IMG/VR virus record: IMGVR_UViG_638341087_000022
Length of the DNA stretch: 43,322 bases
Strand: one strand, 5' to 3'
From: a virus
Taxonomy: Duplodnaviria > Heunggongvirae > Uroviricota > Caudoviricetes
The notes beneath the pieces are model-generated. The model did no database searches. It was not told the origin of the DNA and saw only the letters and a list, made by a program, of their open reading frames with translations. This document shows positions 13,973 to 20,252 of this stretch, piece by piece. A program made the translations under genes and the position numbers. The number at the start of each line of letters is the position of its first letter. Positions within the stretch are counted from its first letter, which is position 1.

Positions 13973-14256
13973 GCGTGGCTATCTATCGCAGCAAAAAATG
14001 GCTCGCCGCCGTCGGGCAGATCGAGCGTTGTGTTCTTTGTGGAGCATGGGGAACGCAGGTGGCACACCGGAACGAAGGGAAAGGCATGGGATTAAAAACC
14101 GATGACTGTGCGACAGCTGCGCTCTGCATTTGCTGTCATGACAGCATTGATAACGGGAATAAGCTGAACAGGGAGGAGCGTCGGCAGCTTATGGACCGCG
14201 CGATTGTTCTGACAGTGATTGAAGTTGCCCGCCGTGGGCTGGTGGTGCCCGTATGA
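13963..14256 (+). CDS. Cys/His-rich nin-region protein (97 aa), possibly YbcO-like
   Basis: CxxC...H...C.CC.H pattern; immediately upstream of rusA, as ybcO is in DLP12. Start codon uncertain (GTG). Confidence 0.4.
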   Translation: MGVSVAIYRSKKWLAAVGQIERCVLCGAWGTQVAHRNEGKGMGLKTDDCATAALCICCHDSIDNGNKLNREERRQLMDRAIVLTVIEVARRGLVVPV

Positions 14257-14609
14257 AAATTTACGAAATAACGCCGATTGGCAAGCCCCGAATGACTCAG
14301 CGTGACCGATGGCATAAACGGCCAGCAACAGCAGCGTACTGGGCATACAAAGAACGGGTCAGGTTGCTGGGCATTCGCCTGCCAGAGTCCGGATATCACG
14401 TCACGTTCGTCATCCCCATGCCAAAGAGCTGGAGTAAGACGAAGCGGGAGAAATACGCCGGGCAGCCACATCAGCAGAAGCCAGACAAAGACAATCTGGA
14501 AAAGGCGCTGCTGGATGCAGTGTTTGACGAGGATAGCCATGTCTGGGACGGGCGTGTTACCAAAATCTGGGGAGAAACCGGGCAAATTATCATCGGGGAG
14601 GCCAGATGA
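14253..14609 (+). CDS. rusA: RusA Holliday-junction resolvase (118 aa)
   Basis: Size, conserved DKDNLEKALLDA acidic motif and position just upstream of Q. Confidence 0.8.
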   Translation: MKIYEITPIGKPRMTQRDRWHKRPATAAYWAYKERVRLLGIRLPESGYHVTFVIPMPKSWSKTKREKYAGQPHQQKPDKDNLEKALLDAVFDEDSHVWDGRVTKIWGETGQIIIGEAR

Positions 14610-14743
14610 AGCCAGAAACGCTCGAGGAACTCCGCGCACGCTGGCAGCGCCTTCGCATTTACCGCTACCGTGGATCGGTGCTGGTGGATTACCGCATTCT
14701 TCGTAATTTTGTTCGCATCTATCATTCAGCAGGAGCCGCATAA
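14606..14743 (+). CDS. Small basic protein (45 aa), YlcG-position; not in the ORF track
   Basis: ATGA overlap with rusA and TAATG overlap with Q; same size and position as DLP12 ylcG. Confidence 0.4.
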   Translation: MKPETLEELRARWQRLRIYRYRGSVLVDYRILRNFVRIYHSAGAA

Positions 14744-15552
14744 TGAACCTCGAATCAATCGCTAAATATTTCGCGCCAAAATCACCGATGTTCAGTGACT
14801 CCTCGAGGGCGACTGCCACCGACAACCTGACCGGAACTGATGTTATGGCCGCGCTTGGACTGGTTAACGCCAAGTGTGGGTTTGGATTTGATTTGTACCT
14901 TGCAAAAATTGGCATCAGCAGCCCGGATCGGGCAATGGAGGCGCTTTATGAATCATCCGTTGAACTTTGCCGACGCTTCAAATCAGTTTCAGAACTCAAT
15001 GAAGAAATCCGTCGGCGAGTTCTCGAAATTTTGTGTGCTTTTGCATATCAGGATTATGCCCGCAGCGCGGCAAGTGTCAGACGCTGTGATTGCTGCGCTG
15101 GTAGCGGCCTCATCGAAGCTGATGTCTTCACAAACAAGGTCCAATACCCGGACGGTAAGCCTCCGGTATGGGCGAAGGCTACAAAAGGAGTGTTTCCGTC
15201 GTATTGGGAAGAATGGAAGTCTGTACGGGAGACTGCGCGGGTTATGTGCAATACCTGTAACGGCAAGGGTGTTATCAGCAATGCGTGTCGCTGTCATGGG
15301 AAAGGGAAGGTACTGGATAAGAAGGCAACTGAATTACAGGGCGTTCCGGTGATGAAAGTTTGTGAGCGGTGTACGGGCAGAGGTTATGCCAGGTTAAAAT
15401 TCTCCAATGTGTTAGAAGGTATCCGCACCACATGGGATGTGAAGAAAACGACGGCATATGAGCAAGTGCAACCGTTGTTTGAACTGCTGGTGGAGGAATG
15501 CCATCGTCAGGAGAGTTATGCAGACAGCGCCTTAAAGTCAGTTACCCGTTAG
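14743..15552 (+). CDS. Q: Late-gene antiterminator Q, lambda-type (269 aa)
   Basis: N-terminus ESIAKYFAPKSPMFSDSSRATATDNLTGTDVMAALG closely parallels lambda Q; CxxC Zn-finger pairs; C-terminal ESYADSALKSVTR parallels lambda ESIADNILNAVTR. Confidence 0.85.
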   Translation: MNLESIAKYFAPKSPMFSDSSRATATDNLTGTDVMAALGLVNAKCGFGFDLYLAKIGISSPDRAMEALYESSVELCRRFKSVSELNEEIRRRVLEILCAFAYQDYARSAASVRRCDCCAGSGLIEADVFTNKVQYPDGKPPVWAKATKGVFPSYWEEWKSVRETARVMCNTCNGKGVISNACRCHGKGKVLDKKATELQGVPVMKVCERCTGRGYARLKFSNVLEGIRTTWDVKKTTAYEQVQPLFELLVEECHRQESYADSALKSVTR

Positions 15553-15593
15553 AAAAATTTTTCACGGTCAATTCTTTTTATAGAAAATAACTG

Positions 15594-15622
15594 TTGTGTT
15601 TTCCGGAAAATCTGTCTACTAT
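15594..15622 (+). promoter_or_regulatory. Candidate late promoter (pR'-like)
   Basis: TTGTGT-17 bp-TACTAT about 40 bp downstream of the Q stop; assignment by position only. Confidence 0.3.
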
Positions 15623-15962
15623 CAACTCTAACGCTGGGAATCCGTTCAATCGTTTCGGCCAGCAATAAAACATATAAGCCCTGCGGTTAATTCCGTGGGG
15701 CCTTCGCGTTTCTGAAGGGGAAGAAAATGCCATGTCATTAAACGGATAGGCCGTAGCAGCCAAATGGCGGCAATCTCAGGGTTATACCTGAGCCCGAGTC
15801 TCTCGACGTGAGCCAGCTTCGCATCTGGTTAGGGTTAATGAATAGTAGTAGCGCCGGTGAAGCATCAGGAACGCCAATCCTGAACTGGTTATGGGCGGCC
15901 ATAGGGCGGCATATGACTCAAAGGCATGAGCGCGGCCACTGCGAGAGTGTGGAACGAATTTC

Positions 15963-16037
15963 GCCGGTCTAGTTCAGTGGGAGAACGGCAGATTTGTAAT
16001 CTGCGCGTCAGAGGTTCGATTCCTTTGCCCGGCACCA
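15963..16037 (+). tRNA. tRNA-Thr (anticodon UGU), phage-encoded
   Basis: Manual cloverleaf: acceptor GCCGGTC/GCCCGGC (one U6-C67 mismatch), D-arm GTTC-AGTGGGA-GAAC, anticodon arm GCAGA-TTTGTAA-TCTGC, T-arm AGAGG-TTCGATT-CCTTT, discriminator A plus CCA. Confidence 0.65.
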
Positions 16038-16092
16038 GAACCCAGCCAGGGTATCTTCAGCCGCAGAGCTGACATTGCCACACCATCATATT

Positions 16093-16114
16093 CCCGCCGA
16101 GAGCGGGTTTTTTA
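16093..16114 (+). terminator. Intrinsic terminator downstream of the tRNA
   Basis: CCCGC-CGAGA-GCGGG followed by TTTTTT. Confidence 0.6.
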
Positions 16115-16465
16115 ATTTTGCGGAATACTTTTTTAATCGCAGAAAAGCATGTCGTTTCGTTTTGATAGGAAAAAACGATGGATAGGCAACACAAGGCTCT
16201 AATGTGCGTAAGTTTGATGGATATGATAATTACGCACAGCTTATCAACAATATTTTGCTATTAGTTAAGTTGTGAATAACTTTTTTTGTTGATAACTCTT
16301 TTTTCTGTGGATAAGTCTGTAGGTTTATTAAATTCTTATGCACAAGTAGAACGCTGATGGTCCTGTACAATCCCGTAAAAGCTTCAATACTGATGACAGC
16401 AATATAAAAACCTATCCAGTGAAGCTATTGAAAACATACAGAATTTGGTTTTCTTCGGGAAAATT

Positions 16466-17221
16466 ATGTCAGGACAGCCTGAGTCAAAAGAACAAGAACT
16501 GCTTGCAACAATCCTCGATTACTTCCAGAAGGGAGAAGTCCCGGATACAGACACTATTGCGGAAATTGAGCACGACATTGCTAAACTTCCAATAAGTGAG
16601 CGCGCACATGCGTATGCATGGCTTAATGGAACTCTCGGGCGTCACTCTGATGCAGTACGTTTATTCAAAGACGCGATGAGCTCTGGGAGTCCAACGATCG
16701 CACAAAACTACTTGGCGTATCTTTCTCGTTCGGCTCATAACTATGAGCATCGCGTTGAGTTGTTTAGAATAGTTGAGCTTTTCCCTTCACATGAACTGAG
16801 GCTTGTAGCAAGAAACGCTGCATTTTGTATCGGCAACGACAAGTTGGTTAAAAAGTTCTCCCTCAAAATGGCTGCTCTTTATGATGGCCAAGAGCGAGAG
16901 GATATAATCAATCAGGGAAATTATATGGCTGAACAGATTGTTGATTTCAAAAACGCTACCCGTCTTTCTTCTCGAGAACTAGAAGCCCTTTGCGATCAAG
17001 CTGAAGAGATTGCGAACAAGCGCGGTATTAACTGTTCAAGTGTTAGCTATTATCTTGGTGGAGATGATGACAATGCATTCATCGTTAGAGCCCAAACTGC
17101 TGATCCGCAGGTTTTAGCTGAAATGAACATGGAACTGTTGGTTTTGCTCTCAGATGATAGTTATCGGAACAGCCCTTTTACATCCTGGTTCCAAAGCGAT
17201 GAAAAAAGAGGGATTTACTGA
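16466..17221 (+). CDS. Cargo protein A, unknown function (251 aa)
   Basis: ATG at 16466 (the track start at 16445 is TTG); AT-rich; no recognised catalytic motif; first gene of a two-gene operon in the Q-to-lysis slot. Confidence 0.6.
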   Translation: MSGQPESKEQELLATILDYFQKGEVPDTDTIAEIEHDIAKLPISERAHAYAWLNGTLGRHSDAVRLFKDAMSSGSPTIAQNYLAYLSRSAHNYEHRVELFRIVELFPSHELRLVARNAAFCIGNDKLVKKFSLKMAALYDGQEREDIINQGNYMAEQIVDFKNATRLSSRELEALCDQAEEIANKRGINCSSVSYYLGGDDDNAFIVRAQTADPQVLAEMNMELLVLLSDDSYRNSPFTSWFQSDEKRGIY

Positions 17222-17625
17222 TGAGCGTATCGGGGAAAGATTTTATTGTTTTTGCTGGTAAATGCATTTCTCACAACGATGAAATCGGTTACAGAAACGC
17301 CATTGGTCGAGCGTATTATGGAGTTTATCATGAAACGCTTGATAAGCTTGAGAAATGCCCAAACAAGTCGTCACACCAAGCTGTTCGCGACTATCTTACA
17401 AATGATGCATGGTTAAAAGGAAATGAGCCGTTTGAAAAAATGAAACTCATTTCTATGGGAACAATGCTGAGACATTTGCATACCCGACGTAAATGGGCAG
17501 ATTACGAGCTTGATAGAACTTTAAGTAAGGCTGATGCGGAAGCTATATTGATAATGGCTAACAAAGCTATTGACACCCTTCAGCAGATGTATGAGCAGGT
17601 TTATCCATCCGAACCTGCTGCTTGA
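17221..17625 (+). CDS. Cargo protein B, unknown function (134 aa) with an Arg-x6-His motif
   Basis: Start overlaps the stop of A (TGATG); motif RAYYGVYH fits the HEPN-style Rx4-6H spacing, unverified; followed by an intrinsic terminator. Confidence 0.6.
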   Translation: MSVSGKDFIVFAGKCISHNDEIGYRNAIGRAYYGVYHETLDKLEKCPNKSSHQAVRDYLTNDAWLKGNEPFEKMKLISMGTMLRHLHTRRKWADYELDRTLSKADAEAILIMANKAIDTLQQMYEQVYPSEPAA

Positions 17626-17642
17626 TTATCTATTCGAAATAA

Positions 17643-17666
17643 CCTCGCTTAAGCGGGGTTTTTTTA
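17643..17666 (+). terminator. Intrinsic terminator ending the cargo operon
   Basis: CCTCGC-TTAA-GCGGGG followed by TTTTTTT. Confidence 0.6.
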
Positions 17667-17834
17667 TGCCTTCGCACCTCCATTTCGGAGGTATTTTGCT
17701 GTGAAAATGGGCGGCTGGTGGATGTTGGAGCACCCACCAGCCATCAGCTCATGCTTTCAGGTCACAAGCTAACCAAGGCCCATTGCTTTAGCGCAAAAGC
17801 AAAGAGAGCCTATCAGAGTTACGCTTATTGATCT

Positions 17835-18887
17835 ATGAAAAATACTGTAAATATAAACAGTGTTGAGTTAGTCAACGCTGATAGCCTGCAATACATCGCC
17901 ACTCTCCCTGATAACTCCATTGACCTGATAGTCACGGATCCGCCGTACTTCAAAGTGAAACCCAACGGCTGGGACAATCAGTGGAAAGGGGATGAGGATT
18001 ATCTTCGCTGGCTTGATATGTGCCTCGCACAATTCTGGCGAGTGCTTAAACCTGCTGGCAGTCTTTATCTTTTCTCCGGTCACCGCCTGGCGGCAGACAT
18101 TGAGATCATGATGCGTGAGCGGTTCAACGTCCTGAACCACATCATCTGGGCTAAACCGTCGGGCCGCTGGAATGGCTGTAATAAAGAGAGTCTGCGCTCT
18201 TACTTCCCTGCAACAGAGCGCATCCTCTTCGCTGAGCATTACCAGGGGCCGTATAAACCAAAGAGCGACGGTTACGCGGAGAAGGGAAGCGAGCTGAAGC
18301 AGCATGTAATGACTCCCCTAATTTCTTATTTCCGGGATGCACGTGAAGCGCTTGGCATAACCTCAAAACAAATAGCCGATGCGACTGGAAAGAAGAACAT
18401 GGTGTCTCACTGGTTCAGCGGTAGCCAGTGGCAATTACCGAATGAATCAGACTACCGGAATCTTCAGTCCCTTTTCACGCAGGTAGCCATCGAAAAGCAC
18501 CAGAACGGCGAACTGGCAACACCACACCACCAGCTGGTGGCTATGTGGCATTCTTTAAATCGCAAGTATTCAGAGCTGCTCGAAGAGTACAAATCGCTTC
18601 GGCGGCATTTCTCTGTTTCCGTATCCGTTCCTTATACCGACGTCTGGACACATAAAACCGTTCAGTTTTACCCAGGTAAACACCCATGCGAAAAACCCGC
18701 TGACATGTTGCGGCAGATCATCAACGCCAGCAGTAAGCCTGGTGATGTGGTGGCTGATTTCTTTATGGGGTCCGGTTCGACCGTGAAAATCGCGCTGGAA
18801 CTTGGCCGCCAGGCTATCGGCGTTGAACTCGAGGAGGACAGGTTTAGCCAGACGGTGGAGGAAATAAGGGCGTTAACAGGGGAATAA
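17835..18887 (+). CDS. DNA methyltransferase, N6-adenine/N4-cytosine type (350 aa)
   Basis: DPPY catalytic motif near the N-terminus (IVTDPPYF) and AdoMet-binding motif near the C-terminus (DFFMGSGST); no adjacent restriction gene. Confidence 0.8.
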   Translation: MKNTVNINSVELVNADSLQYIATLPDNSIDLIVTDPPYFKVKPNGWDNQWKGDEDYLRWLDMCLAQFWRVLKPAGSLYLFSGHRLAADIEIMMRERFNVLNHIIWAKPSGRWNGCNKESLRSYFPATERILFAEHYQGPYKPKSDGYAEKGSELKQHVMTPLISYFRDAREALGITSKQIADATGKKNMVSHWFSGSQWQLPNESDYRNLQSLFTQVAIEKHQNGELATPHHQLVAMWHSLNRKYSELLEEYKSLRRHFSVSVSVPYTDVWTHKTVQFYPGKHPCEKPADMLRQIINASSKPGDVVADFFMGSGSTVKIALELGRQAIGVELEEDRFSQTVEEIRALTGE

Positions 18888-18955: not shown

Positions 18956-19258
18956 ATGAAAATGAATGATTCAGGGAACATTTTCACGCAGTTCTTCGCG
19001 TGGGTAGCAGCTCTGGCGTCAGCCATTGGTTTTACCACTCAGGATATGGTGTTCATGTTCTTTGGCGCCGCTGGTCTGCTTATCTCGTTTGCCTCCTATG
19101 TCAATGGTCGCGTGGATGCCCACCGCAGGCGTAGAGAGGACGAGAAGCGAACAAAAATGGTTAATGACTACCTGAAAGGCGTTGGTGATAAACCCCTTCA
19201 CGAACGTCCTGCGGCTGCAAGCGTGGTCGTTGAGGCATTACAAAAGGAAGGTGAGTGA
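18956..19258 (+). CDS. Holin (100 aa)
   Basis: Met-Lys-Met dual-start motif, two hydrophobic helices, charged C-terminus; immediately upstream of the endolysin with an overlapping stop/start. Confidence 0.65.
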   Translation: MKMNDSGNIFTQFFAWVAALASAIGFTTQDMVFMFFGAAGLLISFASYVNGRVDAHRRRREDEKRTKMVNDYLKGVGDKPLHERPAAASVVVEALQKEGE

Positions 19259-19791
19259 TGGGATCCAGAGCAAAATTAAGTGCTGCTGTTCTGGGGTTGG
19301 TACTTGCTGGTGCGCCAGCATCCGTCATTCTCGATCAGTTTCTGAATGAGAAAGAGGGAAACAGCCTTACAGCGTACAAAGATGGCAGCGGTATCTGGAC
19401 GATTTGCCGGGGAGCTACCACGGTTGACGGCAAGCCTGTTACCCCAGGTATGAGGCTATCGCCAGAGAAATGTAATCAGGTGAACGCCAGCGAGCTGAAC
19501 AAGGCGCTGGCTTGGGTCGACCGCAATATCCAGGTACCACTGACCGAACCGCAGAAAGCGGGGATTGCCTCATTCTGCCCGTACAACATTGGTCCTGGTA
19601 AATGCTTCCCTTCTACCTTTTATAAACGCATCAACGCCGGTGATCGTAAAGGGGCATGTGAAGCAATCCGCTGGTGGATCAAAGACGGTGGCCGCGATTG
19701 CCGACTAACCAAAGGCCAGAAGAATGGCTGCTATGGTCAGGTTGAGAGACGGGACCAGGAAAGCGCGCTGGCGTGTTGGGGGTTAGATTAG
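19258..19791 (+). CDS. SAR endolysin, T4-lysozyme-like muramidase (177 aa)
   Basis: Gly/Ala-rich N-terminal signal-anchor-release segment [20 protein letters not shown]...D...T catalytic triad context [20 protein letters not shown]. Confidence 0.8.
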
Positions 19792-20252
19792 TGAGCCGAT
19801 TAACAGCAATTATCTGTGCTGTCGTTATCTGCCTGATGGTTTCCATGGCTTGGGCTATTAACCACTACCGCGGCAACGCCATCACCTACAAAGACCAGCG
19901 CGATAAAGCCATTAAGAATCTTAACCAGGCGAACGCCACCATCAAAGACATGCAGATCCGCCAGCGTGATGCAGCGGTGCTGGATGCCAAATACACGAAG
20001 GACTTAGCTGATGCTAAAAAGCAGCTTGATGATTTGCAGCGTTGTGTTCGCACTGGCAAGTGTGGGCTGCACGTCAACGCCAGATGTCCCGCGAACGGAG
20101 CGACCAGCACCGGCGGCCTGGGCGATGTTACCGGCCCCCGACTTACTGACTCCGCTGAACGGGATTATTTCACCCTCAGAGAGCGAATCGTCACAGTGAC
20201 GAAACAGGTTGGATATTTGCAGGAATACATCAAAGAGCAGTGCTTAAATTGA
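19791..20252 (+). CDS. Rz-like i-spanin
   Basis: N-terminal TM helix then coiled-coil-like periplasmic domain; contains the embedded Rz1 ORF; start uncertain (GTG at 19773 or 19791). Confidence 0.6.
20011..20199 (+). CDS. Rz1-like o-spanin lipoprotein embedded in Rz (62 aa)
   Basis: +1-frame ORF wholly inside Rz; signal peptide with lipobox-like LASVGC; proline-rich mature part. Confidence 0.65.

Follow-up and report, generated by a model that had tools for sequence, protein, structure and literature searches.

The window analyzed here is a stretch of virus DNA of 43,322 nucleotides (IMG/VR virus record IMGVR_UViG_638341087_000022, Caudoviricetes), in which two adjacent genes, A and B, lie together with an AT-rich leader and flanking intrinsic terminators between the antiterminator gene Q and the lysis genes (Table 1). 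The original prediction, made from the sequence alone, was of an uncharacterised two-gene cargo operon in this Q-to-lysis slot, and its description of the locus has held up well: the two coupled open reading frames (ORFs) have the coordinates and lengths that it gave and overlap at TGATG, one base being common to the A stop and the B start; Q and a tRNA-Thr gene lie upstream, with methylase, lysozyme and Rz genes downstream; and the terminators flanking the pair are the two top-ranked sites in a scan of 15500-18200, which returned 8 sites compared with 2.9 +/- 1.6 in shuffled sequences. The AT-richness that had been judged by eye is likewise apparent on measurement, with GC contents of 0.33-0.36 for the leader, 0.40-0.46 for genes A and B and 0.50-0.56 for the flanks. 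The ORF tool gives a TTG at 16445 as the start of gene A; the start is placed at ATG 16466 because the homologues begin there and the conserved upstream DNA agrees. Our best reading of these sequences is that A-B would be a module of the HEPN toxin type, borne as prophage cargo, in which the partner is new, i.e. that an AF0298/UPF0332 HEPN protein has become locked to a new kind of partner in a mobile element.

Table 1. Features of the A-B cassette and its neighbours (window coordinates).
Feature	Coordinates	Strand	Description
Upstream intrinsic terminator	16093-16114	+	stem CCCGC-CGAGA-GCGGG, 16093-16107, followed by T6
AT-rich leader, 351 bp	16115-16465	+	GC 0.33
DnaA-box-like array, seven 9-mers	16203-16344	both strands	consensus TGTGNATAA / TTATNCACA
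Gene A, 251 aa	16466-17221	+	TPR-like array and small alpha/beta C-terminal domain
Gene B, 134 aa	17221-17625	+	stand-alone HEPN protein
Downstream intrinsic terminator	17641-17668	+	stem AACCTCGC-TTAA-GCGGGGTT, 17641-17660, followed by T-run
RusA	14253-14609		upstream neighbour
Antiterminator Q (PF03589)	14743-15552		upstream neighbour
tRNA-Thr(UGU)	15963-16037		just upstream of cassette; ARAGORN and Rfam
N6/N4 DNA methylase	17835-18887		downstream neighbour
Lysozyme	19255-19791		downstream neighbour
Rz	19773-20252		downstream neighbour

HEPN RNases appear time and again as effectors in bacterial immunity and in toxin-antitoxin systems. Within the superfamily, the AF0298/UPF0332 branch, which has many members, most of them archaeal, and little biochemical characterisation, typically supplies the RNase toxin of MNT-HEPN toxin-antitoxin modules. 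As judged from profile matches and predicted fold, B is a small HEPN protein of this branch (HEPN-T, PF05168). A profile built from 24 homologues matches two PDB entries described as 'HEPN domain-containing protein' (9xbd, E 3e-5; 9xbc, E 1e-4); eight of the 24 family members match the Pfam HEPN model PF05168 (best E 1.5e-5), eight match PADLOC PDC-M05B (best E 8.7e-5) and three match PADLOC HEPN_IX (best E 8.9e-4). The AlphaFold2 model of B (pLDDT 93.7) contains five helices and has the HEPN superfamily fold, a four-helix up-and-down bundle with an insert between helices 2 and 3. B also matches phrog_5176, a PHROG family of unknown function.

Thirteen residues of B (A12, E21, R25, R30, Y32, Y33, H37, H52, Y58, L83, R90, D94 and Y95) are invariant across 52 unique homologues, down to approximately 30% identity. 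The original prediction had called B a HEPN protein from the sequence RAYYGVYH (R30-x6-H37), and although the family assignment stands, the motif argument does not. R30 and H37 are invariant in all 52 homologues and their spacing fits Rx4-6H, but the sequence sits in helix 2 of the model, whereas the canonical motif is located at the end of HEPN helix 3 (Anantharaman 2013, PMC3710099); because of this location the spacing does not identify the canonical motif, and we rejected RAYYGVYH in that role, real as it is as an invariant signature. The position corresponding to the canonical motif, which ends the B helix 73-95, is R90-K-W-A-D94-Y95, in which the Arg is kept and there is no His. In AF0298-like HEPN-T proteins and in AbiV the motif His is usually lost, often with Asp in its place, an alternative conserved His being contributed by the insert between helices 2 and 3; an Ex3[KR] motif of helix 2 has also been described (PMC3710099). 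As read from the alignment and the model, B follows this AF0298-type variant, and the fit to the pattern is exact: R90 and D94 are present, H52 begins the insert helix 52-62 and may be assigned as the alternative His, and E21-x3-R25 in helix 2 conforms to Ex3[KR]. The invariant polar set is as would be expected for an active site, and we regard it as a candidate RNase site. With respect to Y95, the aligned residue differs between the chains of 9xbd and 9xbc, which among solved structures are the closest to B in sequence, being Tyr in one and Phe in the other (RNRSDY versus RNRSDF), which suggests that the depositors consider that Tyr functionally important; a literature search on the two entries found no relevant paper.

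Catalysis by AF0298-type sites is itself a prediction (PMC3710099), and B could instead be a non-catalytic HEPN protein, with the A-B pair binding RNA, nucleotides or protein as a regulator or host-takeover factor, e.g. in late gene expression. We consider this unlikely, in that E, R, R, H, H, R, D and Y are among the residues retained to approximately 30% identity, as expected for an active site, and in that the pair is not confined to late operons, being found also at prophage ends and on the strand opposite to tail genes, and has its own leader and terminator. Were B nonetheless inert, the AF0298/UPF0332 branch would be marked as a binding module, with a bearing on thousands of 'HEPN toxin' annotations.

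Protein A has a TPR-like helical array over residues ~8-184 and an alpha/beta C-terminal domain over ~185-245, with a conserved DMNxELA...FTxWF sequence; its AlphaFold2 model (pLDDT 86.7) comprises ten helices to residue 184 and then a beta-beta-alpha-beta unit. The tandem helix-turn-helix repeats match TPR profiles, 22 of 51 A-family members matching TPR_2 and other members further TPR models, and A can on this basis be placed among the TPR proteins. An exhaustive profile search yielded 71 A cluster representatives, nearly all of ~255 residues and matching end to end, from which A is judged to be a distinct family of fixed architecture; species-representative genomes of GTDB, scanned with the A alignment, gave no relatives. 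In single-sequence searches A matches only phrog_17809, a PHROG family of unknown function. No nucleotidyltransferase, nuclease, DNA-binding (helix-turn-helix (HTH) or ribbon-helix-helix (RHH)) or other enzyme signal was seen in A. A profile of its C-terminal 90 residues found no PDB or Pfam relative, and the possibility of a cryptic nucleotidyltransferase in the C-terminal domain was rejected; a PDB match of A to a designed repeat protein was spurious (per-stretch E ~74). The C-terminus of most B proteins is VYPxxPAA, which is conserved and modelled with low confidence; speculatively, it is a peptide of a type bound by TPR grooves.

The association of the two genes is strict. In 71 of 71 loci (70 from complete genomes, assemblies and IMG/VR contigs, of which ~33 are non-redundant, plus L071), B comes immediately after A and in the same orientation, the genes overlapping or lying no more than 15 nt apart. 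The pairing is kept even where A shares only 18% and B 37% identity with the proteins of the window (hhalign E 8e-31), and also holds in high-GC hosts (L068 and L070); for the outermost members of the A family it rests on four loci, L068-L071. The pairwise identities of A and B are correlated (r = 0.91 across 465 locus pairs), with A diverging faster than B (mean identity 40% versus 49%), and the dN/dS values of 0.04-0.09 for both genes show that both are under purifying selection.

Such an arrangement of overlapping genes resembles that of toxin-antitoxin systems, and given that B is related to the HEPN proteins of MNT-HEPN modules and that the pair often lies near prophage ends beside toxin-antitoxin or SOS cargo (HicAB, DinI, UmuD-like), it could be a classical addiction module, stabilising the prophage by post-segregational killing or excluding close relatives only, with no broader anti-phage role. 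We judge this distinctly unlikely. Protein A is large (251 residues), built of TPRs and evolves much faster than B, properties more in keeping with the sensing of variable partners than with the role of a simple labile antitoxin, and those prophage HEPN proteins that have been characterised are directed against phages arriving from outside.

The behaviour of the pair as cargo is evident from its edges and its surroundings. Homology to other phage backbones starts exactly at 16093 in L001, L007, L008, L010 and L013, despite their different Q genes, and in L014 (75% identity) the homologous block is confined to 16160-17664, i.e. the leader, A, B and the terminator. Across loci the upstream Q genes belong to unrelated families (PF06323 seven times, PF03589 five times and PF06530 twice), or else the upstream neighbour is a chromosomal formate/nitrite transporter gene (five times). 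On the downstream side, methylase, holin and lysozyme genes follow in some loci and integrase, excisionase, UmuD-like, DinI, HicAB and tail-fibre genes in others, and at least two kinds of prophage slot are occupied. The GC content of A-B is below that of the flanks in 31 of 31 loci, and a terminator-like hairpin lies 3' of B in 25 of the 31 non-redundant loci. With respect to the features by which morons are recognised, mobility as a unit, an own terminator and a distinct composition are all found here, and the promoter search found none convincing. That the region is cargo, as originally proposed, is borne out by its sharp homology boundaries, by its varied slots behind three Q families and by its being AT-richer than its flanks; as delimited by these boundaries, 16093-17668 may best be read as an accessory ('moron') cassette, complete in itself, of lambdoid prophages in enterobacteria. 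Its distinct composition is retained far beyond the Enterobacteriaceae, the distant pairs L068 1173-2410 and L070 5123-6330 having ~45% GC within flanks of 62-64% GC.

The cassette is carried by prophages of E. coli, Enterobacter, Klebsiella, Erwinia and Morganella. Of 5426 complete E. coli genomes, 12 have it at 99.8% identity or above, annotated as two hypothetical proteins, and hundreds of contigs from E. coli, Enterobacter and Klebsiella encode exactly these A and B proteins. Among the 50,697 sequenced phages of INPHARED, megablast of the region and tblastn of A found nothing, and the pair has been seen only in prophages and prophage-like contigs. This distribution bears on the proposal of a counter-defence function aiding lytic growth, for instance as an RNase or sponge directed against host immune RNAs or signals, for which the position downstream of Q and next to an orphan DNA methylase, a location open to anti-restriction cargo, may be cited. 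The absence of A from sequenced INPHARED phages, the sighting of the pair only in prophages and prophage-like contigs and the existence of an alternative slot outside lytic operons all argue against such a function, and no similarity to known anti-defence proteins emerged; we regard it as highly improbable.

The leader of the window's cassette is unusual in carrying an array of DnaA-like boxes. The DnaA-box-like sequence that had been pointed out from inspection, TGTGGATAA at 16306-16314, is an exact match to the DnaA-box consensus and proves to be one of seven boxes with at most one mismatch (three exact and four with one mismatch; 0.59 expected), which are located at 16203+, 16230-, 16241-, 16271+, 16287+, 16306+ and 16336-. 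None of 5000 dinucleotide shuffles of the leader reached seven boxes, and the three exact boxes are the only exact matches within the 43-kb window. The 9-bp inverted repeat that had been reported in the leader also exists, as TGTGCGTAA (16203-16211) and TTACGCACA (16230-16238), with a spacer of 18 nt rather than the 19 nt given, and its arms are two of the seven boxes, facing each other. In relatives the repeat is not conserved as a palindrome, the right arm drifting with no compensating change, and we therefore rejected a conserved operator palindrome and prefer to read the arms as two DnaA-like boxes. The leader is conserved at 75-87% in the closest clade (L012-L014), together with the genes, and 7-8 boxes are kept there. 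Because the array was not found upstream of more distant A-B pairs, it is, on present comparisons, a clade-specific, putatively regulatory feature rather than part of the core of the module, and a family-wide occurrence was rejected. The best conserved -10-like hexamers in the leader are TACAAT (16366-16371) and AATACT (16386-16391). Promoter-like matches of at least 9/12 within 15500-18200 occur only on the minus strand, at 16249-16276 inside the box array (TTCACA-16-AATATT), facing the tRNA gene and away from the cassette.

A leader with repeated elements followed by coding genes also raises the possibility of a type III system, in which the leader would encode an RNA antitoxin, as for AbiV/AbiF, and A would be an accessory; AbiV, another HEPN protein without the canonical His, is under RNA antitoxin control. 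The tandem repeats that would encode such an RNA are lacking, in that Tandem Repeats Finder detected only 2.1 copies of a 19-nt unit in the leader and an Rfam scan of it gave no match, and neither an RNA antitoxin nor a known RNA is supported. The boxes, moreover, are found in either orientation and do not occur in other A-B clades, while A is a constant component. This arrangement is thus extremely improbable.

Comparison with described systems did not reveal a counterpart of the cassette. As the original prediction had it, there is no match to a described defence system: no significant system match for A or B, and no consistent match for the A family, was found in PADLOC-DB v2, and the literature searched contained no TPR-HEPN pairing and no mention of the RefSeq accessions or PHROG identifiers of A and B; the accessions are likewise absent from the examined parts of the DefensePredictor supplements. 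The proteins do have some relatives, in that PDC-M05B is distantly related to B, phrog_5176 and phrog_17809 include the two proteins, and the automatic UniRef names are 'HEPN domain-containing protein' and 'Tetratricopeptide repeat protein'; as UniRef already names HEPN and TPR proteins, the domain content of A-B is not a new discovery. Among the closest known systems are MNT-HEPN modules (PF05168/UPF0332 HEPN, e.g. AF0298, PDB 2hsb; PDC-M05), to the HEPN subunit of which B is distantly related. The only system model that the B family touches, PADLOC PDC-M05, is an unvalidated candidate consisting of a nucleotidyltransferase and HEPN pair, and in both MNT-HEPN and HepT/MntA an adjacent minimal nucleotidyltransferase neutralising the HEPN protein is the defining feature, whereas A-B has none. 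With respect to type II toxin-antitoxin systems, the gene order and overlap of A-B fit; A, at 251 residues, contains neither an HTH nor an RHH domain.

HEPN RNases of prophages that respond to a phage protein are established, and prophage-borne HEPN proteins provide precedents for abortive infection, i.e. HepS, Tha/Ith and AbiV, from each of which A-B differs. HepS, the anticodon nuclease of the Gifsy-1 prophage, cleaves tRNA-Thr, including the UGU isoacceptor, and is a single, self-sensing protein with a canonical catalytic His (H105); the cassette has an obligatory separate TPR protein and no canonical His, and there is no detectable sequence similarity between the two. Tha/Ith of Staphylococcus aureus prophages is alike in combining a prophage HEPN RNase with a second phage-encoded controlling protein, but Tha has the canonical Rx4H and Ith is a small Xis-like inhibitor encoded antisense, and neither the genes nor the architecture are homologous to A-B. 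AbiV of Lactococcus, a proven abortive-infection RNase which is among the Foldseek matches, also lacks the canonical His and has a predicted alternative His from the helix 2-3 insert (PMC3710099); it differs in its control by an RNA antitoxin, in its trigger, the phage protein SaV, and in having no TPR partner. Two-gene defence systems such as BcTir/BcTpr are reported to share the design principle, a small effector gene being accompanied by a second gene for a TPR protein, for which a role in recognition has been proposed, but the effector there is a TIR domain rather than HEPN, with no homology to A-B.

Taken with these precedents, the findings make the cassette a credible candidate for toxin-antitoxin type anti-phage defence. 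In the mechanism that we favour, and to which we would give about an even chance, the cassette acts as a toxin-antitoxin type abortive-infection module in which A restrains B until a phage signal frees it. Protein A, which holds the usual upstream, coupled position of an antitoxin and would replace the nucleotidyltransferase, would bind B and keep it inactive; a phage-derived signal would be captured by the TPR array of A, or would remove A; and the freed B would cut a cellular RNA (tRNA, rRNA or mRNA), so stopping growth of the infecting phage. The match of the invariant set of B to the AF0298-type alternative site is consistent with this mechanism, as are the strict pairing of A and B, their correlated divergence, the cargo behaviour and the dN/dS values.

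Several observations weigh against it. Searched alone, B falls below every curated threshold of Pfam, NCBIfam and PADLOC (its best PADLOC match is PDC-M05B, E 0.012, and a Pfam scan of the window protein gave no match at E <= 1), and A alone gives nothing significant against the same three collections. B lacks the canonical Rx4-6H His, and AF0298-type catalysis is predicted only, not demonstrated for the B family. With neither a DNA-binding domain nor an enzyme fold, A is unlike typical type II and type VII antitoxins. No convincing sigma-70 promoter is present in the leader, there being no plus-strand match of at least 9/12, and from the Q-to-lysis slot the genes would also be transcribed late when the phage itself grows lytically, an awkward timing for a toxin.

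A more specific proposal, which we advance tentatively and consider doubtful as a whole, is that A-B represents an undescribed two-component system in which a diversifying TPR protein has replaced MNT as the keeper and sensor of an AF0298-type HEPN RNase with a non-canonical site (H52, R90, D94 and perhaps R30 and H37), and in which expression in the E. coli clade is tied to DnaA or replication status via the seven-box array. If the pair is active, it would provide a tractable E. coli model for a non-canonical HEPN active site and would indicate that a non-enzymatic TPR protein can take the regulator slot of MNT-HEPN modules; it would also be a defence candidate missed by current detection tools. 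The cassette is a well-bounded candidate with an unusual DnaA-box leader, and one among many HEPN-based candidates.

Among the neighbouring genes, that for tRNA-Thr(UGU) is phage-specific, a sensitive blastn search finding it in only 12 of 5426 complete E. coli genomes and never as a host tRNA-Thr gene. Either this tRNA gene or a 92%-identical variant paired with tRNA-Asn adjoins the cassette in at least five of the 12 cassette-bearing genomes, and it is part of the phage backbone rather than of the cassette; a link between the two, for instance through a spare or decoy tRNA, is speculative. The orphan N6/N4 methyltransferase, which has a weak HTH_3-like insert, separates the cassette from the lysis genes and travels with it in most close relatives (homology from 16093 to ~18900 in L001, L007, L008 and L011-L013), but is not carried along in L014. 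The ORF at 18956-19258, of 100 residues and in the position of a holin just 5' of the lysozyme gene, has no Pfam match, and RefSeq labels an identical gene hypothetical. A second hairpin, ACCTCCATTTCGGAGGT (17676-17692), lies 3' of the B terminator, and a sub-threshold Rfam match to the sRNA P26 on the minus strand at 17713-17780 (24.6 bits compared with a gathering score of 36, E 0.031) is probably due to chance.

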